In this document: positions 7,100 to 49,980 of the stretch, piece after piece
Position numbering within the stretch: position 1 is the stretch's first letter
Layout: each line of letters begins with the position of its first letter
Source: Piscinibacter gummiphilus
GTDB taxonomy: Bacteria > Pseudomonadota > Gammaproteobacteria > Burkholderiales > Burkholderiaceae_C
Length of the DNA: 64,000 bases
Reading direction: 5' to 3'
Assembly: GCF_002116905.1 (NCBI RefSeq)
Contig: NZ_CP015118.1
Span: 4,548,351 to 4,612,350 of the forward strand
Program-made: the position numbers and the translations under genes
Notes under the pieces: generated by a model
What the model was told of the DNA's origin: nothing
Seen by the model: the letters and a program-made list of their open reading frames with translations, nothing else
Database searches by the model: none

Positions 7100-7219
7100 G
7101 CAGGATCCTCCAGAGACCTCCCACGATATCAGCCCGGCGGCGGCACCTACAATCGACCCTTCCCCCGTTTCAGCCTGTTTCACCGAACCACCCCGCCCGG
7201 GGGCGTCCGGACCCGCACC

Positions 7220-10015
7220 ATGACCGAACTCGCCAAATCGTTTGAGCCCGCCGCCATCGAAGCCCGCTGGGCCCCGCTGTGGGAGCAGAGCGGCCTGTAC
7301 GAACCCACGCTCGACGCGTCGAAGCCGTCGTTCGCGATCCAGCTGCCGCCGCCCAACGTCACGGGCACGCTGCACATGGGCCATGCGTTCAACCAGACGA
7401 TCATGGACTCGCTCACGCGCTACCACCGCATGCGCGGGCACAACACGCTGTGGGTCCCTGGCACCGACCACGCCGGCATCGCTACGCAGATCGTGGTCGA
7501 GCGCCAGCTGCAAGACAAGGGCCAGAGCCGCCACGACCTCGGCCGCAAGAACTTCGTCGCCCGCGTGTGGGAGTGGAAGGAACAGAGCGGCTCCACCATC
7601 ACCCAGCAGATGCGCCGCATGGGCGACTCGGTGTCGTGGAAGCACGAGTACTTCACGATGGACCCGAACCTGTCGGCCGTCGTCACCGAAACCTTCGTGA
7701 AGCTGTACGAGGAAGGCCTGATCTACCGCGGCAAGCGCCTCGTGAACTGGGACCCGGTGTTGCGCTCGGCCGTGTCCGACCTGGAAGTGTCGAGCGAGGA
7801 GGAGGACGGTTCCCTCTGGCACATCCGCTACCCCCTGGCCGACGGCTCGGGCGAGGTGGTGGTCGCCACCACGCGCCCCGAGACCATGCTGGGCGACGTG
7901 GCCGTGATGGTGCACCCGGAGGACGAGCGCTACACCGCCCTCATCGGCCGTGAGGTGAAGCTGCCGCTCGTGGGCCGCAACATCCCCGTGATCGCCGACG
8001 AATACGTCGACCGCGAGTTCGGCACCGGCGTCGTGAAGGTCACCCCGGCCCACGACACGAACGACTACGCCGTGGGCCAGCGCCACAAGCTGCCGATGAT
8101 CGGCGTGCTGAACCTCGACGCCACCGTCAACGACAACGCCCCCGAGGCCTACCGCGGCCTCGACCGCTTCGTGGCCCGCAAGCGCGTGGTGGCCGACCTG
8201 GAGGCGCAAGGCTTCCTCGTCGAGGTCAAGAAGCACAAGCTGATGGTGCCGCGCTGCGAGCGCACCGGCCAGGTCATCGAGCCCATGCTGACGGACCAGT
8301 GGTTCGTCGCCATGACCAAGGCCGGCGCCGACGGCACGAGCATCGCGCAGAAGGCCATCGACGTGGTCGAGAGCGGCGAGGTCAAGTTCTTCCCCGAGCA
8401 GTGGGTCAACACCTACAACCAGTGGATGAAGAACATCCAGGACTGGTGCATCTCGCGCCAGCTGTGGTGGGGCCACCAGATCCCGGCCTGGTACGGCACG
8501 GGCGGCGAACTCTTCGTCGCACGCGACGAGGCGGAAGCCCGCGCGAAGGCCACGGCCGCCGGCTACACCGGTGAACTGACCCGCGACGAGGACGTGCTCG
8601 ACACGTGGTACTCGTCGGCCCTCGTGCCCTTCTCGTCGCTCGGCTGGCCGAACAAGACGAAGGAACTCGACCTCTTCCTGCCCTCCTCCGTGCTGGTCAC
8701 GGGCTTCGACATCATCTTCTTCTGGGTCGCCAGGATGATCATGATGACGAAACACTTCACCGGCCAGGTGCCGTTCCGCCACGTCTACATCCACGGCCTC
8801 GTGCGCGACTCGCAGGGCAAGAAGATGAGCAAGTCGGAAGGCAACGTGCTCGACCCGGTCGACCTGATCGACGGCATCGCGCTCGGCCCCCTGCTCGACA
8901 AGCGTGTGGTGGGCCTGCGCAAGCCGGAGACGGCGCCGCGCGTGCGCAAGGACACCGAGAAGGAATTCCCGGACGGCATCCCCGCGTTCGGCGCCGATGC
9001 GCTGCGCTTCACGTTCGCGTCGCTCGCCAGCCTGGGCCGCAACATCAACTTCGACAGCAAGCGCTGCGAGGGCTACCGCAACTTCTGCAACAAGCTCTGG
9101 AACGCCACGAAGTTCGTGCTGATGAACTGCGAAGGCCAGGACTGCGGCGTCGACGAGTCGAAGCCGGTGGAACTGTCCCCATCCGACCGCTGGATCATCG
9201 GCGAGCTGCAACGCGTGGAGGCCGAGACCGCGAAGGGCTTTGCCGAGTACCGCCTCGACAACGTCGCCACCGCGCTGTACCAGTTCACCTATGAGTACTG
9301 CGATTGGTACGTCGAGATCGCCAAGGTGCAGATCCAGACCGGCAACGAGGCGCAGCAGCGCGCCACGCGCCGCACGCTGATCCGCACGATCGAGACGCTG
9401 CTACGCCTGCTGCACCCCATCACGCCGTTCGTCACGGCCGAGCTGTGGGAACGCGTGGCGCCGGTGGCCGGCCGCGCGGGCCCGAGCATCGTCACGGCGA
9501 AGTACCCCGAGGCCGACCTGTCCCGCATCGACCCGGAAGCCGACGCCTGGGTGGCCAAGCTGAAGCAGGTCGCGAGCGCCTGCCGCGTGCTGCGCAGCGA
9601 GATGCAGTTGCAGCCCGGCAACCGCGTGCCGCTGAACACCTTCGGAGACCGCGAGTTCCTGACCGCCGCGGCGCCGCTGCTGAAGGCGCTGGCGAAGCTG
9701 TCGGAGGTCAACGTGCTGGCCGACGAGGCCGCGTTCGTGGCGGCCACCAGCCTGTCGCCGGTGACCAACGTGGGCGACGCCCGCCTCGCCCTGCACGTCG
9801 AGATCGACGTGGCCGCCGAGCGGGTGCGCGTCGGCAAGGAGATCACGCGCCTGGAAGGCGAAGTCGCCAAGGCGCAGGCCAAGCTGTCGAACGAGAGTTT
9901 CGTGGCCCGGGCCAAGCCCGAGGTGGTGGATCAGGAGCGCGCGCGCATCGCCGACTTCACGGCGACTCTGGCTCGGCTGCGAGATCAAGCGGCTCGCCTG
10001 GCGCAGTCGGCCTGA
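7220..10015 (+). CDS. valS: valine--tRNA ligase
   Basis: [17 protein letters not shown]...[15 protein letters not shown] (HIGH region) ...KMSKSEGN (KMSKS) and a C-terminal coiled coil; 932 aa. Track ORF 6311..10015 begins at a spurious upstream start. Confidence 0.95.
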
Positions 10016-10934
10016 ACTCGGGCGGCGCCACCGGCGTCGCCATGAGCAGCTCGTCGATGCGGCGGGCCACGGCCCACGCGCTGCGCAGCCGCGACTCGCG
10101 CGTGGTGCTGGCCAGGCGTGGCGTGATCTGCAGGTTGCCGATGCCGTGCAGCGGGCGGCCCTCGTCGAGGGCGCCCGGCTCCAGGCTGTCGATCCAGCCG
10201 GCGGCCATGCGGCCGCTGCGCAGTGCGTCGGCGAGCGACTTCTCGTCGAACACGCCGGAGTGGGACACGCTCACCATCACCTGGTTCGGCTTGCACCACG
10301 GCAGCAGCCGCTCGCCGATCAGGCCCTGGTAGCGCGTGAAGTAGTTCAGCTGCACGGCGAGTGCGTCGCTCGTCTCGATCAGTTCGCGCAGCGGCATGGG
10401 GGCCACCTTCCAGCGGTCCCAGACGCCGTCGCTCGCGTGCAGCGAGGGCTCGTAGCCGATCACCCGGCAGCCGAAGCCGCTCAGCATCGAGGCCATCGCG
10501 CGCGCGGCCGGCGGCATGCCGATCAGGCCCACCGTGCACGCGCCCAGCTCGCGGCCCACGCGCATGCCGTCGGCGCCCTCCACGGGCACCCGGCGCAGCA
10601 TGGAGAGGATGGCGCCGATCATGAACTCGGCCTCGGCCTGGGCGGTGGCGGTGGCGCTGCGCACCACCTCGATGCCGGCGCGCTGGCAGGCTTCGGCATC
10701 GATGTTCTCGGCGCCGCTGTTGATGCGGCCCACGGCGCGCATCATGGGGGCGAGCGGCAGGGTCTTCGCGCCGAAGGCCACGGACGCGGGGAGGATCAGC
10801 GCGCGCACGTTGCACAGGGCGAGGCGGAAGGCCTTCAGGTCCTGGGCCAGTTCGGGTGCGTAGCGCACCGTGTGCCGCGACTCGAGCCACTGCCTGACTT
10901 CCGCGTCCAGCGTGTCGACGATCAGCAAGTCCAT
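9957..10934 (-). CDS. D-isomer-specific 2-hydroxyacid dehydrogenase family protein
   Basis: [10 protein letters not shown] start; [26 protein letters not shown] is a Rossmann NAD-binding segment typical of the family. The first 43 aa of the track ORF are discarded. Confidence 0.6.
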
Positions 10935-11084
10935 AGGGTTGTCACGCAGTCTCGGTAAAACGGCCGGGCCGGATTCCTGTTCCGGGCCATGACACAATGT
11001 TTTTTCTGGGTCGCTGACCGCTGACCCACGCTCACCCACCTGATCACCCGCTCGTCCACTCACCCACTCGAAACGCTGCGCACC

Positions 11085-11951
11085 ATGTCAGTCACCAAGG
11101 CAATCTTCCCCGTGGCCGGTCTCGGCACCCGCTTCCTTCCCGCCACGAAGGCCCAGCCGAAGGAAATGCTGCCGGTGGTGGACAAGCCGCTGATCCAGTA
11201 CGCCGTGGAGGAAGCCTATGCCGCCGGCGTGCGGGAGATGATCTTCGTCACCGGCCGGCACAAGCGCCCCATCGAAGACCACTTTGACATGACTTTCGAG
11301 CTCGAGGTAGCCCTCGAACAGGCGGGTAAGCAGGAGTTGCTGGACGTGGTACGGAGCGTCAAGCCCGACGACATGGAGTGCATCTACGTGCGCCAGCCGC
11401 AGGCCCTGGGCCTCGGCCACGCCGTGCTGTGCGGCCAGCGCCTCGTGGGCAACGAACCGTTCGCCGTGCTGCTCGCGGACGACCTGATGGTGGGTGATCG
11501 TCCGGTGCTCAAGCAGATGGTGGAGCAGTACAACGAGTGGCGCGTGTCCATCCTCGCCGTGCAGGAAGTGCCGGCGGAACACACACGCCGCTACGGCATC
11601 GTGGCGGGAACGGCCATCAACGACCGCCTGATGGACGTCAACCGCATGGTGGAAAAGCCGGCGCCGGAAGATGCGCCGTCGCGCCTGGGCGTGGCCGGCC
11701 GCTACATCCTGACCCCCGGCGTCTTCCACGAGATCGCCAACCAGCCGCGCGGCGTGGGCGGCGAGATCCAGCTGACCGACGGCATCGCCGGCCTGCTGCG
11801 CCGCGAGAAGGTGTTCGCGTACAGCTACGAAGGCAAGCGCTACGACTGCGGCAGCAAGGAGGGGTTCCTGCAGGCCAACGTGGAGCTGGCGCTGAAGCAC
11901 CCGGTGCTGGGCCCGGGCTTCCGCGACTACCTGCGCACGCTCGAGATCTGA
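11085..11951 (+). CDS. galU: UTP--glucose-1-phosphate uridylyltransferase
   Basis: [34 protein letters not shown] ... VEKP motif; 288 aa. Confidence 0.9.
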
Positions 11952-11957
11952 AAAACG

Positions 11958-12036
11958 GTCATCCCGGCGAACGCCGGGATCCACCGGTGAACAGCGCGCC
12001 CCGCCCGCAGTGGGCCCCGGCGTTCGCCGGGGTGAC
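11958..12036. repeat. REP/BIME-like inverted repeat pair (family copy 2)
   Basis: GTCATCCCGGCGAACGCCGGGATC at 11958-11981 and the identical 29-mer CAGTGGGCCCCGGCGTTCGCCGGGGTGAC at 12008-12036, in the galU/tusA-like intergenic space. Confidence 0.6.
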
Positions 12037-12048
12037 GGGCATCGGGGT

Positions 12049-12285
12049 TCAGCGCCGCCGCAGGTAGTGCACGAACTCGCCGCCTTCGGCGGTCTGCTCG
12101 ATCAGCTCGTTGCCCGTCTGCCGGGCGAACGCCTGGAAATCGCGCGTGGACCCGGGGTCGGTGGCCACCACCTTCAGCACGTCGCCGCTGTGCATGTCCG
12201 CCAGTGCCTTCTTGGCCTTCAGGATGGGCAGCGGGCAGTTCATGCCGCGGGTGTCGATTTCCTTGTGGACGGTGGGTGCGTTCAT
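12049..12285 (-). CDS. TusA-family sulfurtransferase (SirA/YedF/YeeD-like)
   Basis: MNAPTVHKEIDTRGMNCPLPILKAKKAL carries the CPxP motif; 78 aa. It is the internal start of track ORF 12049..12747. Confidence 0.7.
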   Translation of the reverse strand: MNAPTVHKEIDTRGMNCPLPILKAKKALADMHSGDVLKVVATDPGSTRDFQAFARQTGNELIEQTAEGGEFVHYLRRR

Positions 12286-12839
12286 GTCGATTCTCGCGGC
12301 GAGCCGGCCGGGGGCCACTCGAGCCATTGGGGTTCGATGCCGCGCGAGCGCAGCCAGTCGGCCACCGCCTGGCCCGTGCCGGCGGGCCAGCACTTCACCT
12401 TCTCGGGCGGCACCAGCTTGTACTCGGCCAGTTCGGGCGACAGCGTCACCTCGCCGCGCGCCACGACGTGGTACGCGATGATGACCTGGTTCATGCGCTG
12501 GAAGTCGTAGACCCCCACCAGGTTCACGGCCTCGGCGGTGAGTGCCGTTTCCTCGAACACCTCGCGGGCGATGCCCTCCTGCGGCGTCTCGCCCGCTTCC
12601 ATGAAGCCGGTGACGAGGCCGAACATCTTCTGCGGCCACGCGGCGTTGCGGGCCAGCAGCAGCTGGCCGCCCGCCTCGGGCAGCTCGATCACGGCGGCGA
12701 GCACCGGGGTCGGGTTGTTCCAGTGGGTCCAGCCGCAGGACGGGCAACGCGTGCGCTCCTTCGGGCCGCCATCCTCGACTTCGGTGATGCGCTGCAGCGC
12801 GGTGGCGCAGTTGGGGCAGAAGTGGAATGCGTGGACCAT
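12282..12839 (-). CDS. NUDIX hydrolase with N-terminal zinc ribbon
   Basis: CPNC...CPSC zinc ribbon followed by a Nudix box GLVTGFMEAGETPQEGIAREVFEETAL. Confidence 0.75.
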   Translation of the reverse strand: MVHAFHFCPNCATALQRITEVEDGGPKERTRCPSCGWTHWNNPTPVLAAVIELPEAGGQLLLARNAAWPQKMFGLVTGFMEAGETPQEGIAREVFEETALTAEAVNLVGVYDFQRMNQVIIAYHVVARGEVTLSPELAEYKLVPPEKVKCWPAGTGQAVADWLRSRGIEPQWLEWPPAGSPREST

Positions 12840-12843
12840 GGCG

Positions 12844-13767
12844 TCAGGCCGGGAAGACGCCGGTGGAGAGGTAGCGGTCGCCGCGGTCGCAGACGATGAA
12901 CACGATGGTCGCGTTCTCGACCCGCTTGGCGACTTCGAGCGCGGCCCAGCAGGCGCCCGCCGCGGAGATGCCCGCGAACAGGCCGTCCTCGCGGGCGAGG
13001 CGCCGCACCATGTCCTCGGCGTTCTCCTGGCTCACCTCGATGGTCTCGTCGATGTTCGTCGGGTCGTAGATCTTCGGCATGTAGGCCTCGGGCCACTTGC
13101 GGATGCCGGGGATGCGCGAACCCTCGCTCGGCTGCGCGCCGATCACCTGGATGGCCGGGTTCTTCTCCTTCAGGAACTTCGACGTGCCGGTGATGGTGCC
13201 GGTGGTGCCCATCGCGCTCACGAAGTGCGTGATGCGGCCGTCGGTGTCCTTCCAGATCTCGGGGCCCGTGGATTCGTAGTGGGCGCGCGGGTTGTCGGGG
13301 TTGCCGAACTGGTCGAGCACCCGGCCCTTGCCCTCGCGCTGCATCTGCTCGGCGAGGTCACGGGCGTATTCCATGCCGCCGCTGCGGGGCGTCAGCACGA
13401 GTTCCGCGCCGAAGGCCTTCATGGTCTGCGCGCGTTCGATGCTCAGGTCCTCCGGCATGATCAGGACCATGCGGAAGCCGCGCACGGCCGCGGCCATCGC
13501 CAGGGCGATGCCGGTGTTGCCGGACGTGGCCTCGATCAGCGTGTCGCCGGGGCGGATCTCGCCGCGCTCCTCGGCGCGCTTGATCATGCTGATGGCGGGA
13601 CGGTCCTTGACCGAGCCGGCCGGGTTGTTGCCCTCGAGCTTGCCGAGGATGACGTTGCCGCGCCGGTCGTTCTCCGCGCCGGGCACACGCACCAGCCGCA
13701 CCAGCGGGGTGTTGCCGATCGAGTCTTCGAGTGTCTTGTAGGTCTTCATGCGCTCTCCTGCCGCCAT
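12844..13767 (-). CDS. cysM: cysteine synthase B (O-acetylserine sulfhydrylase)
   Basis: LKLEGNNPAGSVKDRPA (PLP lysine), ITHFVSAMGTTGTITG, IPGIRKWP, CDRGDRYLSTGVF; collinear with E. coli CysM. The true start may be the internal MKTYKT at 13749. Confidence 0.85.
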   Translation of the reverse strand: MAAGERMKTYKTLEDSIGNTPLVRLVRVPGAENDRRGNVILGKLEGNNPAGSVKDRPAISMIKRAEERGEIRPGDTLIEATSGNTGIALAMAAAVRGFRMVLIMPEDLSIERAQTMKAFGAELVLTPRSGGMEYARDLAEQMQREGKGRVLDQFGNPDNPRAHYESTGPEIWKDTDGRITHFVSAMGTTGTITGTSKFLKEKNPAIQVIGAQPSEGSRIPGIRKWPEAYMPKIYDPTNIDETIEVSQENAEDMVRRLAREDGLFAGISAAGACWAALEVAKRVENATIVFIVCDRGDRYLSTGVFPA

Positions 13768-13884
13768 TGTCGCAGGAGCGGGAGAACCCGGCCGGCATGC
13801 GGAATCTCGGGCTGCACCTCGTTACCGCCCCCCTCGCCGGCTCCGGTACGCTTCGCTCCACAAAAGGAACCCAGGGAGAGAGGG

Positions 13885-15279
13885 ATGGACCGTTCGAAAC
13901 ACTGGCACGTGGCCGCGCTGCTGGGCGCCGTCGCGTGCCTGGCCACCGCGGGGTGTGGGGGTGGAGGCTCCGACACACCCGCCACGCCGCCGGCCCCGGC
14001 CGTGACACCGTCGCCACCGGCCGCGGCGCCGCCCGCCTCCGCGCCCCCGTCGGCACCGGCGTCCGCCCTCACCCCGGCTTGCGCGAACTTCTACACCACC
14101 GCCTTCACGCTGTCCGGCACCCGCACCACCGATCCCATCGCCACGCTCGCCAAGCCCGCGAAGGGCGCGGCCTTCGCGGAACCCGCGTACGGCACGTGTG
14201 TCGTGCGGTCCACCGACCACGCGGCCGACGGTGTCGCCGGCTTCACCCGCAACGACTACTCGCGCCGCCAGGCCTTCAACGCCACCGGCACCCACTACCT
14301 CGCCTACGCGCTGAACGGCAGCTGGCACCTGTACGAGACCGCCACGCGGCAGCGCGTCAAGGTGCTGCCCGGCCCCGGCGGCGATGCCGAGCCGCAGTGG
14401 CACGCCACCGACGGCGACAAGCTCTACTACCTGCCCACCAACGGCGTCGGCATGAAGGTGAACGAGCTCACGGTGTCCACCGGCGCCACGCGCGTGGTGG
14501 GCGACCTGGGCGCCCGCCTGAAGGCCCGCTGGCCGGCCGCCGCGGTGGCGTGGACCAAGTCCGAAGGCGCACCGTCGCGCGACCAGCGTTACTGGTGCTT
14601 CATGGTCGAGGACGTGAACTTCGGCACCCTCGGCGTGGCCACGTGGGACCGCGACACCGACAGCCTCGTGGGCACGATGAACACGAACGGCGACCGCCCC
14701 GACCACGTCAGCATGAGCCCGAGCGGCGACTGGTGCGTGGTGTCCGGCGACGGCGCGCGCGGCACGGTCGCGTACTCGCGGGACTTCTCGCAACAACGCA
14801 AGCTGCTCGCGAAGTCCGAGCACTCCGACATCGCGATCGGCGCGAACGGCGACGACCTCTACGTCTCGGTCGACTACCAGTCGGCCCAGGGCGACCTCTT
14901 CATGATCAACCTGCGCACCGGCGAACGCACGGCGCTGCTGCCCACCTACCTCGCGGGCACCACCAACGCGCTGCACATCTCGGGCAAGGGCTACGACAAG
15001 CCGGGCTGGGTGATCGTGTCGGTCTACGCGGGTTTCATTCCCGCCGGCGGCAGCCGGCAGTGGATGCACGACAAGGTCTTCGCGATGGAACTCAAGGCCT
15101 CGCCGCGCACGTTCAACCTCGCGTTCCACCGCTCGCTCTACAACGAGTACTGGACGGAACCGCACGCGACCGTCAGCCGCGACTTCACGAAGGTGCTGTT
15201 CAACTCGAACTGGAACACCGGCAGCAAGGACGACGTGGACGCCTACATGGTGGAACTGCCGGCGGACGCGGTGAAGTGA
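13885..15279 (+). CDS. hypothetical secreted lipoprotein (beta-propeller-like composition)
   Basis: MDRSKHWHVAALLGAVACLATAGCGGGG lipobox followed by a Pro/Ala-rich linker; 464 aa. Track ORF 12538..15279 has 449 junk residues upstream (antisense of cysM). Confidence 0.6.
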   Translation: MDRSKHWHVAALLGAVACLATAGCGGGGSDTPATPPAPAVTPSPPAAAPPASAPPSAPASALTPACANFYTTAFTLSGTRTTDPIATLAKPAKGAAFAEPAYGTCVVRSTDHAADGVAGFTRNDYSRRQAFNATGTHYLAYALNGSWHLYETATRQRVKVLPGPGGDAEPQWHATDGDKLYYLPTNGVGMKVNELTVSTGATRVVGDLGARLKARWPAAAVAWTKSEGAPSRDQRYWCFMVEDVNFGTLGVATWDRDTDSLVGTMNTNGDRPDHVSMSPSGDWCVVSGDGARGTVAYSRDFSQQRKLLAKSEHSDIAIGANGDDLYVSVDYQSAQGDLFMINLRTGERTALLPTYLAGTTNALHISGKGYDKPGWVIVSVYAGFIPAGGSRQWMHDKVFAMELKASPRTFNLAFHRSLYNEYWTEPHATVSRDFTKVLFNSNWNTGSKDDVDAYMVELPADAVK

Positions 15280-15298
15280 CGGCCACGGCGCGCGGGGC

Positions 15299-15541
15299 TC
15301 AGGCCTTCCGCGCGTCGACCCCTGCCACGCCCGAATCGATCAGGTAGCGCGCGCCCACCTGGGCCTCGCGGATGGCCGAGGCCAGGTTGGGCGCGGGGCC
15401 CACGTCGCCCGGCGAATGCTCGACGCCGTCGATCCGGAGGAACCAGTTCCAACGCCCGCCTCCGGCATCGGAAAGAACGATCTCCACCGCGTGGCCACGG
15501 TGGACGAACGCGGTCGCGTCCTCGGGTACTTCGTACGACAT
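15299..15541 (-). CDS. small hypothetical protein (80 aa), paralog A
   Basis: MSYEVPEDATAF...WNWFLRIDGVEHSPGDVGPAPNLASAIREAQ; resembles the neighbouring 80-aa ORF (shared NW.ID..G and LASxIRxxxAQ segments). Confidence 0.35.
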   Translation of the reverse strand: MSYEVPEDATAFVHRGHAVEIVLSDAGGGRWNWFLRIDGVEHSPGDVGPAPNLASAIREAQVGARYLIDSGVAGVDARKA

Positions 15542-16818: not shown

Positions 16819-17721
16819 TCAGGCGACCAGCCCTTCCCGCACCGTCGGGTAGCGCAGCACGAGGCGCAGTTCCGCCACGAGCCGCCGGTTGTCGAGCCGG
16901 CGCGACTCGCTCCAGAACGACATCTGCATGGGCGACATCGTGCGCTCCGCCTCGGCGCGCGTGATGCGCGGTGGCCGCGGCAGGCCGCACAGGTCCGCGG
17001 CCAGGTCGAAGTACTCGCCCATGCGCAGGTCGGTGTGGTCGCTCGCGTGCACGATGCGCTGCGGCAGGCCGCGGTGCAGCGCCGCCACGCAGGCGCGGGC
17101 GAGGTCGTCGGCGTGGATGTGGTTCGTGAAGACGTCGTCCTCGGCCACCAGCACCGGCGTGGCCTTCGCGAGGCGCTCGCGCGGGTGGCCCCCAGGGCGA
17201 TCGCCCGCATAGATGCCGGGGATGCGCAGCACCGTGGCGCGCACGCCGGCGCGGCGGCCGAACCACCGCACGCGGGCCTCGGCGTCGACCCGCCGCCGTG
17301 CGCGGTCGGTGGCCGGGTTCACGGCGCGGGTCTCGTCGAACCGCGCGCCGCCCGCATCACCGTACACGCCGGTGGTGCTGCCGTAGACGAGGCGTCGCAC
17401 GCGGCCCTGGCGCGACAGCGCGTCCAGCAGGTGGCGGGTGCGTTCGTCGGTGTCGCCGTCGCGCGCGGGCGGCGCGAGGTGCAACACGGCATCGGCGAGG
17501 CCCGCGAGCCGGCCCAGCGTGGCGGGCGTGTCGAGGTCACCCACCAGCGGCACCGCGCCGGCCGCGCGCAGCTCGGGTGCGCGGGCCGCCGTGGACGTCA
17601 GCGCCAGCACGCGCCAGCGCCCCGCGAGCAGCCGGACGACACGCAGGCCCACGTCACCACACCCCACGATCAACAGGACGGGCCGGCGGAAGCGGGTGGG
17701 ACGGGTGGACGGCGTGGGCAT
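16819..17721 (-). CDS. NAD-dependent epimerase/dehydratase family (SDR) protein
   Basis: N-terminal LLIVGCGDVGLRV Rossmann motif and YGSTTGVYG (YxxxK-type region). Start chosen at MPTPST; the track start at 17787 is also possible. Confidence 0.6.
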   Translation of the reverse strand: MPTPSTRPTRFRRPVLLIVGCGDVGLRVVRLLAGRWRVLALTSTAARAPELRAAGAVPLVGDLDTPATLGRLAGLADAVLHLAPPARDGDTDERTRHLLDALSRQGRVRRLVYGSTTGVYGDAGGARFDETRAVNPATDRARRRVDAEARVRWFGRRAGVRATVLRIPGIYAGDRPGGHPRERLAKATPVLVAEDDVFTNHIHADDLARACVAALHRGLPQRIVHASDHTDLRMGEYFDLAADLCGLPRPPRITRAEAERTMSPMQMSFWSESRRLDNRRLVAELRLVLRYPTVREGLVA

Positions 17722-18827: not shown

Positions 18828-19064
18828 TCACCCCCGCTCGGCCACGAACGGCTGCTCGATCTGGAACTCCCCGGCGGTGTCCTTCACGATCCGCACGATG
18901 ACGGGCAACATGTCATCGGGGCCCACCCAGGTGGAGCCGCCGCGGGCACGCTCCCAGTCCCCTCGCGGGATCGCGACGAACTCGACCCCGGGCTTCCAGG
19001 CCGGGTCGGCCTGCAGGCGGCGGTTGAGTTCGGCGATGTACTGGTCGTTGGTGAGCGAGGCCAC
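18828..19064 (-). CDS. small hypothetical protein (78 aa)
   Basis: Protein-like composition. Its ATG overlaps the stop of the upstream 61-aa ORF (ATGA at 19064). Confidence 0.4.
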   Translation of the reverse strand: MASLTNDQYIAELNRRLQADPAWKPGVEFVAIPRGDWERARGGSTWVGPDDMLPVIVRIVKDTAGEFQIEQPFVAERG

Positions 19065-19249
19065 TACAGCTCCAGGTGCATCTGGTGCTCTTCGTCGTGG
19101 GGATGCAGCGTGGCGAGCGCCTTCTCGGTGGCCACGATCTCGTCGGCGATGCGATCGATCTTCGGCCGGTTCCAGGCCGGAGCGGCATAGGCCTCTTCCA
19201 GCTCGTTGCGAAGGCGGTGGTATTTGCCCGTCAGTTCAGTGAATCCCAT
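19064..19249 (-). CDS. small hypothetical protein (61 aa)
   Basis: MGFTELTGKYHRLRNELEEAYAAPAWNRPKIDRIADEIVATEKALATLHPHDEEHQMHLEL; the two small genes are translationally coupled. Confidence 0.35.
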   Translation of the reverse strand: MGFTELTGKYHRLRNELEEAYAAPAWNRPKIDRIADEIVATEKALATLHPHDEEHQMHLEL

Positions 19250-19834
19250 CGAAGGCTCCTTTTGGGTCTCTGCTGCGGTGCAGTATGACCCAAGTGGAAA
19301 CCCTAGGGTGTAGGACAACAGGCGTCACGAGGGGTGAGATTGTCGCAACGGTGTGTCGCGTGGGGCCGACGTGGCCTCACCGCGACATCGAACCGAGCAG
19401 GCCCCAGGCCCAGCCGGCCACCAGGGGCGCCAGCAGCACGATGGCCAACCAGACCACGGCATGGCGAACCCAGCGGGCACGCCGGTACCGCAGGCGGCGC
19501 CCGGGCCCCAGCAATCCGTCGGAGGTGGTGAAACTGACACGGCCGGTGAGTTCTCCCGGGCGTGTCGATCGCGCCGCCGCAGCGGCACGGTGAGGGGCGG
19601 CACTCGAAGGCGGGATCACGCGGCCTCCAACGGCCGACCAGCCCTGCCCCCGCATCCCCACGGCGATGTCGTCGGTCATCACGATTCTCCCCAACCCGCC
19701 GGAACGGTCCGGCCCCGACGCCAGTGTGAAGGCCACTCTTCGGCCACCGGGTAGGCGCTGGGCGCGGCCGCTTGTCGGCGCCGTCCGACAAGGCTCACTC
19801 CCACCGGCGCTTAGAATGCCGTGCCCTGCGCTCC

Positions 19835-19909
19835 CTCGCCGTAGTTCAATGGATAGAACGGCCGCCTCCTAAGCGGCAAATACAGGTTCGATTCCTGTCG
19901 GCGGGACCA
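19835..19909 (+). tRNA. tRNA-Arg (anticodon CCU)
   Basis: CTCGCCG-TA-GTTCAATGGATAGAAC-G-GCCGCCTCCTAAGCGGC-AAAT-ACAGGTTCGATTCCTGT-CGGCGGG-A-CCA. The D loop and T arm closely resemble E. coli argW. Acceptor stem as folded here has C1:G72 and a U2:G71 wobble. Confidence 0.8.
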
Positions 19910-20008
19910 GCCACTTTGCGGCAAAGTGCCAGCAGGCGCAGGACGGAAGGCATCAACAGGCGCGACAGACGCCGATGCCCCACGCGACTCAGGGAGAGAA
20001 GAGGGACC

Positions 20009-20938
20009 ATGAAGAGGCATGTGGTGCGGCTGGCGCACGAGATCTCGCACGTCACGGGCATGGCCCTGCGCAAGGCGCGGGCCATCAGGCAGCCGCGGGT
20101 GCTGATGTACCACACCGTGGACCCCGAGGGCATTCCAACGGACGTCTTCAGGGCGCAGCTCGACGTCATCCGCCGGGAATTCGAACCCATCTCTCTGCCC
20201 ACGCTGCTCTCCCGGTACCGCGACGGCCGCTGCACGGGCCGCGAGGTCGCCCTCACCTTCGACGACGGGGTCCGCAACCACCTGAGCACCGCCTACCCGT
20301 TGCTGCGGGAAGCGGACGTTCCCGCCACGTTTTTCCTCTGCTCCGGCCTGATCGACTCCGGCCAGTGGGTCTGGAACACCGAGGCCCGTGCCCGGCTGCA
20401 GGGCCTGGGTGCGGCCGAACGCAAGGCGCTGGCCACCCGCGAGGGATGGCCGGTCCACGCCGTCGAGGCGCTCGTCGAATGGGCCAAGGGCCTCGCACCG
20501 GACCGGCGCGAGGCGTTCGAGAGTGCCGTGCGCGCCCACACGCCGGCGTTCGAGCCCACGCCGATGCAGCAGGACCTGTTCGCCCCGATGACGTGGGACG
20601 AGGTTCATTCGCTGGATCCGGCCCTCATCACGATCGGCAGCCACACGGTGTCCCACCCCATCCTGACCACGCTGTCGGCCCGGGAGCAGACCGAGGAGCT
20701 GACGGCGAGCCGCGCCCGGCTCGAGGCGCAGCTCGGCCGCGAGGTCGACATCTTCTGCTACCCGAATGGCGACTCGGATCCGGCCGTGGTCGAGGCCGTG
20801 CGCAAGTCCTACCGCTGGGCGGTGACCACCGAGGAGTCCTTCTGGGGGCCGGGCCACGACCTGTGCCGGCTGCCCCGGATCCCGGCGGCACCGCACCACG
20901 CCTTGTTCGTGCGGCGGATGCACAAGCCCACCTCCTGA
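20009..20938 (+). CDS. polysaccharide deacetylase (CE4/NodB family)
   Basis: LMYHTV...ALTFDDGVRNH (TFDDG motif I) ... FFLCSG ... IGSHTVSHPIL (motif II with catalytic His); 310 aa, starts 100 bp after tRNA-Arg. Confidence 0.8.
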   Translation: MKRHVVRLAHEISHVTGMALRKARAIRQPRVLMYHTVDPEGIPTDVFRAQLDVIRREFEPISLPTLLSRYRDGRCTGREVALTFDDGVRNHLSTAYPLLREADVPATFFLCSGLIDSGQWVWNTEARARLQGLGAAERKALATREGWPVHAVEALVEWAKGLAPDRREAFESAVRAHTPAFEPTPMQQDLFAPMTWDEVHSLDPALITIGSHTVSHPILTTLSAREQTEELTASRARLEAQLGREVDIFCYPNGDSDPAVVEAVRKSYRWAVTTEESFWGPGHDLCRLPRIPAAPHHALFVRRMHKPTS

Positions 20939-22662
20939 TGAGCACGCCCACCCGCCCCGCCCCACGGGCCGTGGCCCTGGTCCTCGACGGCCACAGCCGC
21001 GCGGCCGCCGAGACCGTGCTGGCCCTGCCCCGCGACGTCGAGGTCCACGTGTCGGCCGCGTCGGACGACTGCCTGTGTTTCGCCTCGCCCCGCGTGGCGC
21101 AGCGCCTGAGGCAGCCCGCCGACCCCGCCGAGTTCCTCGTGTGGCTGCAACAGCTGGACGCGCAGCACGGCTACGCCCTGATCGTGCCGGTCACGGAAAC
21201 CTCGCTGATCGCGCTCAAGTCGCACGCCGTGCCCGCGGCCCTGCGCGCGAAGGCCGTCATCGGCGACGAGGCCTCGATCGACGTGGCCCTGAGCAAGGAC
21301 CACACGGTGCGCGTGGCCGAAGGCCTGGGCATCCGCGTGCCGAAGGGCCGGCTGGTCACGGACGCAGCCGCAGTGACCACGGCCGCCTCGTTCCCCGCGG
21401 TGGTCAAGCCGGTGCACAGCAAGGTGCGCATCGACGGCCACCTGCGCACGATCGAGGCTCGCATCTGCGCCGACGAGCAGGCCCGCCAGGCCGCGTTCCG
21501 CGAGATGCTGCCGCACACCCCGGTGGTCGAGCAGGAATACTTCGCGGGCCGTGGCGTGGGCGTGGAGGCCCTCTTCGAACACGGCGAGCCGCGCTGGGTC
21601 TTCGCCCACGAACGGCTCCACGAGATGCCGCTCACCGGCGGCGCCAGCACGTACCGGCGCGCCATCGAGCCGCCGGCCGCGGTGCGCGAGGCCGCCCTCG
21701 CCCTGCTGCGCCACCTGCGCTGGCACGGCGTCGCGATGGTCGAGTTCAAGGTCTCGCCCGACGGGCAGGACTACCGCCTGATCGAGATCAACCCGCGCCT
21801 GTGGGGATCGCTGCCGCTCGCCGTGGGCGCCGGCGTCAACTTCCCGCTGGGCCTGCTGCGGCTGGCCACCGGCACGCCCGTGGGCCCGCAGCCCCGGCCC
21901 ACGCGCTGCCGCTACATGCGCCACGTGTCGAACGACGTGCGCTGGTTCGTGCAGTCGTGGAAACGGCGCCACGACCCCCTGCTGGTCAAGCGACTGGACG
22001 CCGGGGACTTCCTCGGCCTGCTGCGCCCGCTGTGGGGCGCCGAGCGCTGGGACCTCTTCCGCTGGAACGACCGCACCCTGTGGTGGGCCGCCACGCGCGA
22101 CCTGTTCCAGGGCATCACGAACCGACTGAACCGCTGGCGCGCCGGCCGCGCCGCCCGCGCGAACTGGTCGCGGCTCGCGCCGGACTGGCGCGCCGGCCGC
22201 ATCGAGCGCGTGCTGGTGCTCTGCTACGGCAACATCTGCCGCAGCCCCGTGGTGGGCCTGATGCTCGCCGACGCGCTGCCGGGCGTGCAGGTGCGCAGCG
22301 CCGGCATGCACCCGAAGACCGGCCGCACGTCGCCCGCGGCGTGGGCCGAGACGGTGCGGGACACGCTGTCGGTGGACCTCGCCGACCACCGCTCGCAGCA
22401 GGCGGGCGAGGCCGACATGGCCTGGGCCCAGCTGGTGATCGCGATGGACACCGAGAACTGGGAGGCCATCGAGCGGACGTTCCCCACGCACCTGCCGCGG
22501 GTCACGCTGCTGTCGGCGATGGCGGAACAGGGAGGTGGCAGCGAGGTGCCCGACCCCTACAACAAGCCGGGGCCGGAGATGCGCGCGATCGCGGAGACCA
22601 TTCGCCGCTGCGTGAGCCGCGCGATCGGTGCGTTCCCGCTGCGCCCGGGATCCCCGGGCTGA
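20938..22662 (+). CDS. ATP-grasp domain protein fused to a low-molecular-weight protein-tyrosine phosphatase
   Basis: N-terminal ATP-grasp core: PAVVKP ... EQEYFAGRGVGVEAL ... HGVAMVEFKV ... YRLIEINPRLWGS. C-terminal VLVLCYGNICRSPVVGLML is the LMW-PTP P-loop C(X)5R(S). The ATG overlaps the deacetylase stop (ATGA). Confidence 0.7.
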   Translation: MSTPTRPAPRAVALVLDGHSRAAAETVLALPRDVEVHVSAASDDCLCFASPRVAQRLRQPADPAEFLVWLQQLDAQHGYALIVPVTETSLIALKSHAVPAALRAKAVIGDEASIDVALSKDHTVRVAEGLGIRVPKGRLVTDAAAVTTAASFPAVVKPVHSKVRIDGHLRTIEARICADEQARQAAFREMLPHTPVVEQEYFAGRGVGVEALFEHGEPRWVFAHERLHEMPLTGGASTYRRAIEPPAAVREAALALLRHLRWHGVAMVEFKVSPDGQDYRLIEINPRLWGSLPLAVGAGVNFPLGLLRLATGTPVGPQPRPTRCRYMRHVSNDVRWFVQSWKRRHDPLLVKRLDAGDFLGLLRPLWGAERWDLFRWNDRTLWWAATRDLFQGITNRLNRWRAGRAARANWSRLAPDWRAGRIERVLVLCYGNICRSPVVGLMLADALPGVQVRSAGMHPKTGRTSPAAWAETVRDTLSVDLADHRSQQAGEADMAWAQLVIAMDTENWEAIERTFPTHLPRVTLLSAMAEQGGGSEVPDPYNKPGPEMRAIAETIRRCVSRAIGAFPLRPGSPG

Positions 22663-22677
22663 CCTGACCGCGGGGCC

Positions 22678-23163
22678 TCAGGAGGGCCGCTGGTCGAGCG
22701 TGGGGCCGTCGCCGCGCAGCAGGCGGCCCAGGGCGGGTTCCGGGAGCTTGTCGCCGAGCGGGATCGCATCGGGCGCGCCCACGTCGGAAAGGGCCCGGGC
22801 CGGCACGTTCTGCCGCAGTTCGCGCGGATCGAGTTCGGATTCGGCGGCGATGGCGTCGTCGTAGGCTGCTTCGACCGACACCTCGCCCACGGCGGAGGCG
22901 AACAGGGTCTTGAGCAGCCAGGCGACCCCGAGGAAAAGCCCGATGCCGATCACGGCGAAGGCCGTGAGCAGCACGCCGTGCACCCACGGCGTGGTGAAGA
23001 AGGCGAAGCCGGCCGCGGCGACCAGGCCCGCGACGGCGATGCCGCCACGCGCCCCGGGACCGAAGAAGTCGCCGATCACCAGCGCGTAGCAGATGAGGAA
23101 GGCCACGGCAAACAAGTACTGCAAGACACCCATCGATTCAAGACTGTGGTGAAGCTCGCTCAT
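22678..23163 (-). CDS. hypothetical membrane protein
   Basis: Two to three hydrophobic helices (VLQYLFAVAFLICYALVIGDFF..., GLVAAAGFAFFTTPWVHGVLLTAFAVIGIGLFLGVAWLL) followed by an acidic tail. Start at MSELHH (internal to the track ORF). Confidence 0.5.
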   Translation of the reverse strand: MSELHHSLESMGVLQYLFAVAFLICYALVIGDFFGPGARGGIAVAGLVAAAGFAFFTTPWVHGVLLTAFAVIGIGLFLGVAWLLKTLFASAVGEVSVEAAYDDAIAAESELDPRELRQNVPARALSDVGAPDAIPLGDKLPEPALGRLLRGDGPTLDQRPS

Positions 23164-23525
23164 GTGGCACCCGGTGGAACGTAAAACGTTGTGACGCGAT
23201 GCCATGGTGCCATCCGGCGACGAGGTCGAACGTGACAAAACCCCCTGTTTCCCCTTGGTTATGGGGGTCTCGCCACACAGCGTTCTTCGCCACGGTCAAA
23301 CATCACGGGTTTCCGGATCCACCGCGCCCCTGGCGAAGCGGCCACGCAACACCCCGAAACGGGGTCGACACACGCAGCAACACAGCAGTCTCCCACGCCG
23401 CCGCTGCTCGCAAATACGGTGAAACTTCCGGTCTCCTTCCCCCTCAAAACGGGGGTCCCGCGTCATATACTGAAATCGATTCTTTTTTGGGGTTTGCCGG
23501 TCATCCGGCCAGGAGCAGGTCATCT

Positions 23526-29116: not shown

Positions 29117-29830
29117 ATGTCCGTGATCAAGAGAGTGGTGACCCTGCTGCGCGGCAGCGTGCGCGAGATCGGTGAAAGCGTGGTCGACGCCAACGCCACC
29201 CGCATCTACGAGCAGGAGATCGTCGACGCGCGCCAGGCCATCGTGGCCGCCCGCAACGACCTGACGATGGTGATGGCCAAGGAGATGCAGAGCGCCCGCG
29301 AGATCGAGCGCCTGCAGCAGGAGGCCGCGCGCTACGAATCGCTGGCCGTCGAGGCGCTCGACAAGTCGCAGGAGTCGCTGGCCGAGGAAGTGGCCGGCCG
29401 CGTGGCCGCGCTCGAGGAGGAACTCGCCGGCCAGACGAAGGCGCATGCGGCCTACGCGCTGCAGGTGGTCAAGCTGAAGGACCTGGTGCGCACCGCCGAG
29501 CAGCGCATCCGCGAACACGAACGCGAGATCGGCATCGCGAAGACCACCGAAAGCGTCTACCGCGCCACCCGCTCCATCTCGGAGAACCTGGGCAGCGGCG
29601 GCTCGCGCCTGCTGAACGCGCGCGAGTCGCTCGAACGCATCAAGCAGCGGCACGAGGAACTGGCCGACCGCATGACCGCGGCCGACCAGCTGGAAGGCGA
29701 ACTGGGCCATGGCGCACTCGACCGCAAGCTGCGCGAGGCGGGCATCGGCGAACAGGCCGACCGCCAGCGCGACGCGATGGCGCGCATCCGCGCCCGCGCG
29801 GCCACGCGCACGGCTCCCGCGGCCGAATGA
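29117..29830 (+). CDS. PspA/IM30 family protein (YjfJ-like)
   Basis: All-helical and coiled-coil-rich, with an N-terminal MSVIKRVVTLLRGSVREIGESVVDANATRIYEQEI typical of PspA/IM30/Vipp1-family starts; 237 aa. Confidence 0.8.
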   Translation: MSVIKRVVTLLRGSVREIGESVVDANATRIYEQEIVDARQAIVAARNDLTMVMAKEMQSAREIERLQQEAARYESLAVEALDKSQESLAEEVAGRVAALEEELAGQTKAHAAYALQVVKLKDLVRTAEQRIREHEREIGIAKTTESVYRATRSISENLGSGGSRLLNARESLERIKQRHEELADRMTAADQLEGELGHGALDRKLREAGIGEQADRQRDAMARIRARAATRTAPAAE

Positions 29831-30171
29831 CCGTGCGGCAGAAGCCGGCCCGCTGGACCTCGTCCGACGAGGCGATCCGGGCCGTCCAGGTCGCCTTCGA
29901 CGTCGAGGAGGCCGTGCTGCAGGCGGTGCGCCAGGCGGCGTTCGAGAACCACCTCTCGAACTCCGACCAGATCCGCAAGCTGCTCGACCTGCCCACGGCC
30001 GAGAAACCGAAGCGGCCGCGCCTGACCGTGTCGCTGAGCCCGGCCGACTATGAGCTGCTGGCGAAGCGCTACGGGCTGGCGGGCGACGACCGGCTGACCA
30101 TCAAGGAGCGGGTCACCGCGGAACTCATCGCCTTCGCCGGACAACCGGACGAGGGCACGCCGGCGCCATGA
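29827..30171 (+). CDS. hypothetical protein, possibly a tandem ribbon-helix-helix fold
   Basis: Two segments with a beta-strand then helix pattern (VQVAFDVEEAVLQAVRQAAF and LTVSLSPADYELLAKRYGL) suggest CopG/Arc-like RHH units. Its start overlaps the previous stop. Confidence 0.4.
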   Translation: MTVRQKPARWTSSDEAIRAVQVAFDVEEAVLQAVRQAAFENHLSNSDQIRKLLDLPTAEKPKRPRLTVSLSPADYELLAKRYGLAGDDRLTIKERVTAELIAFAGQPDEGTPAP

Positions 30172-30228
30172 CCGGCATCACGCGCGGCAGAACACAGAAC
30201 AGCGCGCGGAACCACGAGGGAGCAGGGA

Positions 30229-30858
30229 ATGGGAAACTTCTACGGGGCGGCCTTCGGCTTCCCCACGGCGATCTACACGGCGCTGCTGGGCATGGTGCTC
30301 TTCTACTGGGTGCTGGCCGTCGTCGGGGTCGTCGACTTCGACAGCAGCGGCATCGACCTCGAACTGCAGGCTGACGCCAGCGTCGACGACCTGGGCACCC
30401 TCGCCGGCTTCATCGTGGCCTTCGGCCTCGGCGGCGTGCCGTTCTCGGTCGCCATCAGCCTGCTCGTGCTGATCTCGTGGACCGTGTGCTGCCTGATCGC
30501 GATGTGGCTGCTGCCCCTCGTGCCCACGCTGCTCCTGCAGCTCGCCGCCGGCACCGCCGCCCTCCTCGGCAGCTTCGCGCTCGCGCTGCCCGCCACGGCC
30601 GTGAGCCTGCGGCCGCTGCGCCGCCTGTTCGTGACCCACGGCGCCGCCACCAACGCATCGCTCGTGGGGCAACGCTGCAGCGTGCTGACCAGCCGCGTCA
30701 CCGACACCTTCGGGCAGGCCGAGGTGCCGCGCCGCGGCGCCCCGCTCAACATCGACGTGCGTGCCGCCGAGCCCAACGTGTTCACCCGCGGCACCGCCGC
30801 CCGCATCGTCGACTACGACCCCGCCACACAACGCTATTCGATCGAACCCGAGGTGTGA
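30229..30858 (+). CDS. NfeD/YqiJ-like membrane protein (DUF1449-type flotillin partner)
   Basis: Three to four N-terminal TM helices and a C-terminal soluble OB-like segment (VGQRCSVLTSRVTDTFGQAEV...RIVDYDPATQRYSIEP). Architecture and position directly upstream of a flotillin match E. coli yqiJ-yqiK. Confidence 0.7.
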   Translation: MGNFYGAAFGFPTAIYTALLGMVLFYWVLAVVGVVDFDSSGIDLELQADASVDDLGTLAGFIVAFGLGGVPFSVAISLLVLISWTVCCLIAMWLLPLVPTLLLQLAAGTAALLGSFALALPATAVSLRPLRRLFVTHGAATNASLVGQRCSVLTSRVTDTFGQAEVPRRGAPLNIDVRAAEPNVFTRGTAARIVDYDPATQRYSIEPEV

Positions 30859-49928: not shown

Positions 49929-49980
49929 CGGCGCAACTTCTCCGAAACTCGACATCCCCTTTTGGCAATCCGGATGCCCG

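Follow-up and report, generated by a model that had tools for sequence, protein, structure and literature searches.

Bacterial enzyme pairs such as NodB/NodA, MshB/MshC and BshB/BshC follow a common logic, in which deacetylation is succeeded by formation of an amide. Here we report a computational analysis of two adjacent genes that may follow this logic, located beside a tRNA-Arg gene in a 64,000-nucleotide (nt) stretch of the Piscinibacter gummiphilus chromosome (64 kb; hereafter referred to as the window). The first gene encodes a deacetylase of the carbohydrate esterase family CE4, and the second encodes a fusion of an ATP-grasp ligase with a low-molecular-weight protein tyrosine phosphatase (LMW-PTP). 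The two are coupled across phyla by adjacency and occasional fusion, and the usual neighbourhood of this cassette in other genomes is exopolysaccharide (EPS) biosynthesis, often of the XrtA/PEP-CTERM type. On balance, and with moderate confidence, we read the pair as a self-contained EPS-type sugar-tailoring cassette that was acquired as a unit beside tRNA-Arg and that combines deacetylation, re-acylation and a Wzb-like phosphatase. The three activities are individually well known; their fixed combination is a large family for which we found no published study.

In the Wbp/Vim pathway of Porphyromonas and Tannerella, a sugar is deacetylated by the CE4 enzyme VimE, after which VimA attaches serine or glycine to the amine, and the product is the sugar that links cargo of type IX secretion; the same study pointed out that a CE4 gene and an amide-forming gene are likewise paired in PEP-CTERM loci (PMC7468200). 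An XrtA-type cluster of Rubrivivax, a relative of Piscinibacter, contains wza together with genes for a tyrosine kinase, an ATPase, a deacetylase and a FemAB-like protein; in the sections of that article available to us, no gene of the cluster is labelled as a tyrosine phosphatase, a term that occurs there once, in the reference list (PMC3684757). In the HS:2 capsule of Campylobacter jejuni, the ATP-grasp enzyme Cj1438C amidates glucuronate with serinol phosphate or ethanolamine phosphate, and Cj1435 hydrolyses the phosphate (PMC11800379).

The deacetylase and the ATP-grasp–phosphatase fusion

The tRNA-Arg gene (anticodon CCT; positions 19835–19909, + strand) was located by ARAGORN, with the CE4 open reading frame (ORF) as the next gene, as an earlier note made from the sequence had described. 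Between them lies a 99-nt intergenic leader (19910–20008, +), read directly from the sequence, in which the purine-rich GGGAGAGAAGAGGG directly precedes the CE4 ATG; a consensus scan of the locus found no sigma-70-like promoter, and the promoter and terminator scan yielded nothing usable. The CE4 gene (20009–20938, +; Pfam PF01522) encodes a 309-residue protein with NodB homology, WP_085752414.1, which is named 'polysaccharide deacetylase family protein' in the database. The fusion gene (20938–22662, +) encodes WP_085752415.1, named 'ATP-grasp domain-containing protein', which was delineated by Pfam, motifs, alignment and an AlphaFold2 model and consists of 574 residues rather than the 575 given earlier. 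Of the tight translational coupling to the CE4 gene by a four-base ATGA overlap that the note had claimed, the coupling stands and the overlap does not: the CE4 stop codon TGA (20936–20938) shares a single base with the fusion ATG (20938–20940) in the sequence TGATG, and the junction reads TGATGA, with a second in-frame TGA after the one-base overlap. In a relative with 77% nucleotide identity (L093, positions 1–210), about 110 nt separate the CE4 stop from the fusion start and there is no overlap, indicating that the translational coupling in the window is not fixed, even inside the Piscinibacter lineage.

The CE4 protein matches Pfam Polysacc_deac_1 with an E value of 1.5e-23 and 83.6 bits (cut-off 23.1). 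It contains motif 1 (T84-F-D-D87), with the catalytic and metal-binding aspartates, and motif 2 (H212-T-V-S-H216), with the metal-binding histidine pair, and TFDD, H212, H216 and YPNG are each at least 95% conserved among 47 partner CE4 proteins. In NCBIfam, only sub-threshold matches to PdaB, IcaB and PgaB were obtained, and no equivalog cut-off was reached. Membership in the XrtA/PEP-CTERM deacetylase family TIGR03006 was considered and rejected, as Pfam and NCBIfam searches of the protein returned neither TIGR03006 nor DUF3473; genuine TIGR03006 proteins are encoded by genes of their own in related loci. Neither the CE4 nor the fusion protein has a signal peptide or transmembrane segment, and the CE4 N terminus is not hydrophobic (maximum Kyte–Doolittle average over 19 residues, 1.0). 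Both proteins are therefore predicted to be soluble and cytoplasmic, the compartment in which an ATP-dependent enzyme must act.

The fusion protein begins with an ATP-grasp carboxylate–amine ligase domain (approximately residues 10–340; 20965–21957, +). Residues 200–316 match Pfam ATPgrasp_Ter (35.3 bits, cut-off 29.1) and CPSase_L_D2; at E values up to 0.01, ATPgrasp_Ter, CPSase_L_D2 and ATP-grasp_3 were the only Pfam reports for the ligase. The domain has the ATP-binding lysine, the Mg-binding Glu and Asn residues, the catalytic arginine (E-x-N-x-R) and the three-domain fold of ATP-grasp enzymes, and residues K157, E269, E283, N285 and R287 are shared by all 22 homologues (40–77% identity) in an alignment. 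In the AlphaFold2 model of the fusion protein (mean pLDDT 87.5, pTM 0.72), the closest folds to this domain are amino-acid-type carboxylate–amine ligases (2pn1, PylC and L-amino-acid ligase), with PurK also among the best, and these small-molecule ligases outrank protein-modifying ligases. NCBIfam returned a sub-threshold 'carbamoyl phosphate synthase-like protein' match only. Two assignments were rejected: the TupA-like ATP-grasp family of Cj1438C, to which the domain has no Pfam match, and a Ter-operon system (the context of PF15632), as no Ter genes were found nearby in the window or in any locus examined.

A family-specific region (approximately residues 341–420; 21958–22197, +), defined by the alignment and the secondary structure of the model, connects the two domains. 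It contains the invariant motif R363-P-x2-G-x-E-x-W-D-x-F (22-homologue alignment) and a long connecting helix (residues 379–418), and the motif region is also retained in ligase-only homologues of about 390–440 residues.

The LMW-PTP domain (approximately residues 421–565; 22198–22632, +) is Wzb-like. Residues 425–559 match LMWPc (Pfam PF01451) with an E value of 1.1e-15 and 58.5 bits (cut-off 23.2). The P-loop CYGNICRS (C429–S436; 22222–22245) conforms to C-X5-R-(S/T), and all 22 diverse homologues have C429, N432, R435 and S436. In the general-acid loop D539-P540-Y541 (Asp539 at 22552–22554), the aspartate is at least 90% conserved and the proline is invariant among the 22; one homologue, P0028, lacks the aspartate. 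With the score above threshold and the fold also that of the superfamily, the domain is an LMW-PTP, and it has the complete phosphotyrosine-type signature, CxGNICRS with Ile preceding the second Cys and an aromatic DPY loop. In a PDB sequence-profile search, AmsI, Vibrio Wzb and Escherichia coli Wzb ranked top (2.3e-23 to 1e-22). In a sub-clade of homologues (P0024, P0058 and P0028), the P-loop reads CRGNVFRSP or CRENLFRSP, the second Cys being replaced by Phe (alignment columns ~485–600), and the DPY loop is changed to RDPR or, in P0028, which is encoded in locus L009, to HSPL. The phosphatase may be weakened or repurposed in this sub-clade, judging from these substitutions. Altogether, the three domain assignments of the earlier note, CE4, ATP-grasp and LMW-PTP with an intact CYGNICRS P-loop, are borne out by Pfam scores and by catalytic residues present on alignment.

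A widespread family in exopolysaccharide loci

A search of a 5.8-billion-protein collection identified over 100 clusters (90% identity) that have this ATP-grasp and LMWPc architecture and are 43–97% identical to the fusion protein. Searching 1.84 billion 50%-identity representatives with a profile gave 2,625 proteins at E ≤ 1e-30, a count that takes in ligase-only and other partial relatives; nearly all of the best 150 of these 2,625 are full-length, at 555–625 residues, and the full ATP-grasp and LMW-PTP architecture occurs in over 150 clusters defined at 50% identity. When one genome was scanned for each species, at least 597 stretches were confirmed as relatives of the fusion; the taxa among the matches listed are Rhodanobacteraceae, other Gammaproteobacteria, Burkholderiales, many Acidobacteriota, Planctomycetota, Methylomirabilota, Rokubacteria, Myxococcota and Chloroflexota, and cultured carriers include Thiomonas delicata DSM 16361, Solilutibacter silvestris and Litorirhabdus singularis. 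Twelve independent contigs encode an identical fusion protein, among them the complete Piscinibacter (formerly Rhizobacter) gummiphilus chromosome CP024645.1. This identity, together with the recurrence of the architecture in hundreds of clusters, rules out a frameshift or assembly artefact, and the reading of the two domains as a single ORF held. The impression that the fusion is unusual did not survive, given its spread over Pseudomonadota, Acidobacteriota, Planctomycetota and other phyla. Where names are given in the 90% clusters, they are 'ATP-grasp domain-containing protein' or, from JGI, 'protein-tyrosine-phosphatase/predicted ATP-grasp superfamily ATP-dependent carboligase', a label that names both domains. 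Full-text literature searching found no description of the architecture. The fusion family is thus large, concentrated in soil Acidobacteriota and Pseudomonadota, named only generically and without a dedicated family model.

Larger variants link the fusion to sugar tailoring. Twelve of the best 150 representatives have at least 770 residues, and nine of the ten that were scanned with Pfam carry an extra domain: CE4, at the N terminus in P0245 (CE4::ATP-grasp::PTP) and at the C terminus in P0157 (ATP-grasp::PTP::CE4); a PF13480 GNAT domain, preceding the unit in P0166 and P0193 and following it in P0175, P0167 and P0189; an N-terminal methyltransferase in P0182; and a C-terminal GT4 glycosyltransferase in P0215. 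In all nine, the ATP-grasp::PTP unit is whole and each added domain is a sugar-tailoring enzyme, and these fusions provide the strongest evidence that the CE4 enzyme and the ligase share one pathway. In the tenth protein, P0252 (1,031 residues), no added domain was found, and its N-terminal 425 residues have no Pfam match. Assignment of the fused GNAT domains to TIGR03019, the FemAB family of pep-cterm, was not upheld, the matches being to PF13480 and, weakly, to BspF.

The genomic context was sampled in 84 non-redundant loci, in which stop-to-stop ORFs were clustered and the cluster representatives were identified by Pfam and NCBIfam. A CE4 homologue lies directly upstream of the fusion gene on the same strand in 45 of the 77 loci with enough upstream sequence for counting, and within 10 kb in 61 of them. 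Glycosyltransferases of families GT2 (40–47 of the 84 loci) and GT4 (37–38) are the most frequent other neighbours, followed by an XrtA/PEP-CTERM-type ATPase with best match to TIGR03015 (22), PF13480 GNAT proteins (20), a tyrosine autokinase, or BY-kinase (19; its representative exceeds the TIGR01007 cut-off, best matches TIGR03018 and has a C-terminal YYKY), the XrtA system deacetylase (18; representative above the TIGR03006 cut-off) and NAD-dependent epimerases (15). In the acidobacterial loci inspected in detail, the genes for CE4, the fusion, the ATPase and the autokinase follow one another in this order on one strand, the kinase gene being two genes downstream, and no second LMW-PTP was detected within 10 kb of the fusion in the related loci. 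Within the 64 kb of the window, no homologues of the GT2, GT4, ATPase, autokinase, GNAT or XrtA-deacetylase neighbours were found, nor any exosortase or EPS gene homologue; the BY-kinase and EPS setting that the earlier note had anticipated is therefore missing here, and a BY-kinase gene is present in the minority of related loci counted above.

Several loci of proteobacteria carry carrier-protein chemistry beside the cassette. A PKS/NRPS-like gene of about 2,400–2,600 codons occurs in L005 (12763–21692) and downstream in L011 and L013, and an NRPS-like A-T-C-A-T protein is encoded directly upstream of the cassette in L090 (80–5260). An alpha/beta hydrolase pair stands beside the PKS/NRPS-like gene in L005, L013 and the partial L010, and the L005 hydrolases match hydr1/hydr2_PEP below the cut-off; in several proteobacterial loci, hydr1/hydr2_PEP-like hydrolases adjoin large PKS/NRPS-like genes. 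In L009 (15276–18826), an acyl-CoA dehydrogenase, a class-II aminoacyl-tRNA-synthetase-like (tRNA-synt_2b) protein, a DUF1839 protein and a PP-binding protein are encoded near the cassette. Carrier-protein genes beside the cassette may supply the acyl or amino-acyl group.

Three Lysobacterales loci (L050, L052 and L058, the last from Solilutibacter silvestris) contain a bare CE4 and fusion pair (~6200–15300). On one side of the pair, an acetyl-CoA synthetase gene is accompanied by a LuxR-type response regulator; on the other lies a gene for a 1,186-residue hybrid histidine kinase that contains a PAS_7 domain. The arrangement is reminiscent of an acetate-utilisation regulon split by the deacetylase cassette, which may be coincidence or may be linked to released acetate.

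The tRNA flank and the origin of the cassette

Metagenome contigs were scanned for the exact 75-nt tRNA and then searched by tblastn with the flanking proteins of the window. The identical tRNA-Arg occurs in at least 120 contigs. In L118 (97%), L113 (89%) and L093 (77% nucleotide identity), the tRNA is followed by the CE4 gene, the fusion gene, a small gene and ctpA, as in the window, where the small gene is a convergent hydrophobic ORF (22678–23238, −; 151–186 residues as called) that has no Pfam match and lies outside the cassette. In L145 and L166, the tRNA is identical, the flanks are about 80% identical and CtpA is 91% identical; the CE4 and fusion genes are missing, and a homologue of the 22678–23238 gene begins 100–210 nt after the tRNA and is followed by ctpA. 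In these two contigs the tRNA runs straight into the downstream genes, and the tRNA flank thus shows a presence/absence difference for the cassette, bordered on the left by the tRNA and on the right by the small ORF, which supports the earlier suggestion of an insertion beside the tRNA. In L123, ctpA comes directly after the tRNA; the tRNA–ctpA interval varies among relatives.

No integrase is present among the called genes within ±10 kb of the cassette, no second copy of the tRNA 3′ end was found in the window when 3 mismatches over 25 nt or 2 over 17 nt were allowed, and no direct repeats flank the two genes. The GC content of the cassette (0.73–0.75) exceeds that of the flanks (0.67–0.70) and lies within the range of the window, which reaches 0.77 at 17100–17699. 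A recent tRNA-targeted island, which would be expected to show an integrase, repeats or low GC, is thereby rejected, and the lack of an integrase and of repeats, along with a composition that is not AT-rich, points to an old acquisition. These results, and the conservation of the arrangement at 77% nucleotide identity, bear out the earlier note, which had seen no repeat of the tRNA 3′ end and had judged the pair not to be a recent mobile island. Adjacency to a tRNA is not a trait of the family, as a scan of 36 other loci found no tRNA close to the fusion gene in any of them. The fusion protein is closest to Rhodanobacteraceae versions (49–54% identity, among the matches listed in the genome scan), with other Burkholderiales at 34–40% in eight loci, and the CE4 protein is likewise closest to Rhodanobacteraceae (50–52%), with other Burkholderiales at 39–43% in the four loci that have a full-length adjacent copy. 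The nearest non-Piscinibacter homologue examined (62%) stands between an NRPS-like gene and a GT2 gene. The cassette is best read as a 2.8-kb unit (approximately 19910–22677) that was gained beside the tRNA by an ancestor of P. gummiphilus and whose integration scars have since been lost; alternatively, it may have been lost in the L145/L166 lineage.

In the more distant L103 (1272–8900) and L124 (2830–5850), ABC-transporter permease and ATPase genes lie between tRNA-Arg(CCT) and ctpA, and in L103 the interval also holds PEP-CTERM, dockerin-domain and PD40/DPPIV-like proteins; no integrase was found in either interval. Two ORFs of 78 and 84 residues just upstream of the tRNA in the window (18828–19318, −) have no Pfam match, and the 84-residue ORF, like the small ORF at 22678–23238, is conserved in relatives. 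Further from the cassette, no Pfam match was obtained for a 464-residue ORF (13885–15279, +) or for two ORFs of 114 and 209 residues after the PspA gene (29827–30858, +). The earlier note had reported a PEP-CTERM protein near 49179; the ORF at that position (49179–49955, −), with the C terminus VSEPGMGLLAALGAGLVFWCRRRR, matches Pfam PEP-CTERM at 17.4 bits (E 0.005), below the cut-off of 20.7 bits, and the adjoining ORF (49981–50769, −) has a weak zf-HC2 anti-sigma-type zinc finger.

Proposed function and comparison with known systems

In the mechanism that we favour, the CE4 enzyme would remove the N-acetyl group of an amino sugar on a cytoplasmic intermediate, nucleotide- or undecaprenyl-linked, rather than on the exported polymer. 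The ATP-grasp domain would activate a carboxylate, most plausibly of an amino acid or a small organic acid, as an acyl phosphate and ligate it to the exposed sugar amine, such that the N-acetyl group is exchanged for another N-acyl group in an ATP-dependent, tRNA-independent step. The Wzb-like domain would act as a phosphotyrosine phosphatase, most likely on the tyrosine autokinase of the EPS assembly machine, and a regulator would thereby be tethered to a tailoring enzyme; in P. gummiphilus, the kinase gene would lie outside the window. The Wzb-like role is favoured because the closest relatives of the domain in sequence and fold are Wzb-type enzymes, because its P-loop is of the phosphotyrosine type and its DPY loop aromatic, and because it is the sole LMW-PTP in the XrtA-type loci that have the kinase. 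The proposal of the earlier note that the two proteins modify a polysaccharide fits the CE4 coupling, the tailoring fusions and the EPS context.

Several observations weigh against this mechanism. The order of deacetylation and acylation is suggested by adjacency, fusions and analogy, and the amino-sugar substrate is a putative one. The arginine phosphatase YwlE (1.5e-22) nearly equals Wzb in the PDB profile search, so the phosphatase substrate is not fixed by sequence alone, and the domain falls far below the NCBIfam cut-offs for Wzb (PRK10126, 46.1 versus 243 bits) and Etp (PRK11391, 54.9 versus 247). The window contains no glycosyltransferase, BY-kinase or export gene, and a BY-kinase is lacking within 10 kb in 48 of the 64 loci that encode the PTP and extend for at least 4.5 kb downstream. 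Furthermore, ligase-only homologues without a PTP within 10 kb occur in 9 of the 84 loci and make up about 11 of the best 150 representatives, and one of them, in L085, adjoins a BY-kinase.

The scarcity of nearby kinases also speaks for a different role for the phosphatase, namely as a pathway enzyme: the ligase would join a phosphorylated amine, such as ethanolamine phosphate or serinol phosphate, or work on a sugar phosphate, and the LMW-PTP would strip the phosphate from the product. The tailoring-domain fusions are also the main argument for this role, as the ATP-grasp::PTP core is stable throughout the multi-domain variants and the extras are tailoring enzymes, not regulators, and the fusion is kept in stand-alone cassettes devoid of EPS machinery, in the window and in the three Lysobacterales loci. 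Ligation by Cj1438C followed by phosphate hydrolysis by Cj1435 provides a precedent (PMC11800379), although Cj1438C belongs to the TupA-like family, which the window protein does not match. Ligase-only homologues indicate that the ligase chemistry is independent of the phosphatase, whose full phosphotyrosine-type signature, best matches to BY-kinase phosphatases and position as the sole LMW-PTP near the kinase in XrtA-type loci all speak for regulation instead. We regard a biosynthetic phosphatase as a possibility to be taken seriously, albeit a doubtful one.

Two further explanations carry much less weight. Like RimK- or LysX-type enzymes, the ATP-grasp domain could modify the carboxylate of a protein or peptide, possibly a BY-kinase, a carrier protein or a PEP-CTERM protein, with the phosphatase acting on the same protein. 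NRPS-like, PKS or carrier-protein genes near the cassette in L005, L009, L011, L013 and L090 are compatible with such a target, but the strongest and most widespread partner is a carbohydrate esterase, sometimes fused, glycosyltransferases dominate the neighbourhood and the best fold matches are small-molecule ligases, making a protein target quite improbable. It is a little less credible still that the pair is stranded cargo of an old tRNA-targeted island, idle or decaying for want of a working partner in the genome. The presence/absence difference falls exactly at the tRNA 3′ flank, the window has no EPS genes and the closest non-Piscinibacter homologues belong to larger clusters, as this explanation would have it; however, both ORFs are intact with every catalytic residue kept, the pair is undisrupted in the relatives at 97%, 89% and 77% identity, the same bare pair is stably retained in Lysobacterales, and there is no integrase, att repeat or low-GC signature.

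The sugar-tailoring cassette with a Wzb-like phosphatase, which remains our preferred reading, could also have a more specific product. The cassette would then produce a 'linking sugar' that is N-aminoacylated, bears an amine in another way or is acyl-modified, and exosortase would use this sugar as the acceptor in joining PEP-CTERM proteins to exopolysaccharide. The ligase may in that case be an ATP-dependent, tRNA-independent counterpart of VimA, and the phosphatase may tie linker output to the phosphorylation cycle of the XrtA-associated autokinase. We consider this product unlikely; if it is correct, a part of the acceptor chemistry on which the PEP-CTERM/exosortase system depends would be identified.

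Knowledge of the product would add a decoration step to environmental exopolysaccharide chemistry, and the family may bear on both the chemistry and the regulation of XrtA/PEP-CTERM exopolysaccharide systems, possibly revealing the missing phosphatase of the XrtA-associated tyrosine autokinases. Knowing the product would also show whether a Wzb-like phosphatase domain can be recruited to biosynthesis instead of regulation. P. gummiphilus, a cultured organism with a bare two-gene unit, offers a convenient test organism for these questions.

A comparison with described systems reveals that the cassette combines known kinds of component, a CE4 enzyme with an amide-forming partner and a Wzb-type phosphatase, and is not a new kind of system. 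As in the VimE/VimA pair, a predicted cytoplasmic CE4 enzyme is paired with an enzyme that would form a new amide on the exposed sugar amine, and, as with the CE4 and FemAB-like pair of PEP-CTERM/XrtA systems, the cassette often resides in XrtA-type loci with TIGR03006 and PF13480 GNAT genes. Unlike VimA and FemAB, the partner is an ATP-grasp ligase, which would use a free carboxylate and ATP in place of an activated acyl or aminoacyl donor, and the cassette CE4 is not a TIGR03006 protein. Cj1438C and Cj1435 similarly unite an ATP-grasp amide ligase that decorates a polysaccharide sugar with a phosphatase of the same pathway; in contrast to the cassette, Cj1438C is TupA-like and activates the uronate carboxylate of the sugar itself, Cj1435 is a separate protein that is not described as an LMW-PTP, and no CE4 enzyme takes part (PMC11800379). 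The 2pn1-type 'carbamoyl-phosphate-synthase-like' ATP-grasp proteins (PRK12767; 2pn1 itself is uncharacterised), PylC and the L-amino-acid ligases share only 16–21% identity with the ligase domain and lack the RPxxGxExWDxF region and the phosphatase domain, both of which are present in the fusion. The closest sequence relatives of the PTP domain are the Wzb/AmsI/Etp-type LMW-PTPs, the phosphatases of BY-kinases such as Wzc. Whereas these are free proteins of about 150 residues, the domain forms the C-terminal third of a 574-residue enzyme, scores below the Wzb and Etp equivalog cut-offs and has a BY-kinase neither in the window nor within 10 kb in most loci. Taken together, the P. gummiphilus pair is an ordinary member of a large EPS-associated tailoring family, stranded as a bare pair beside a tRNA.

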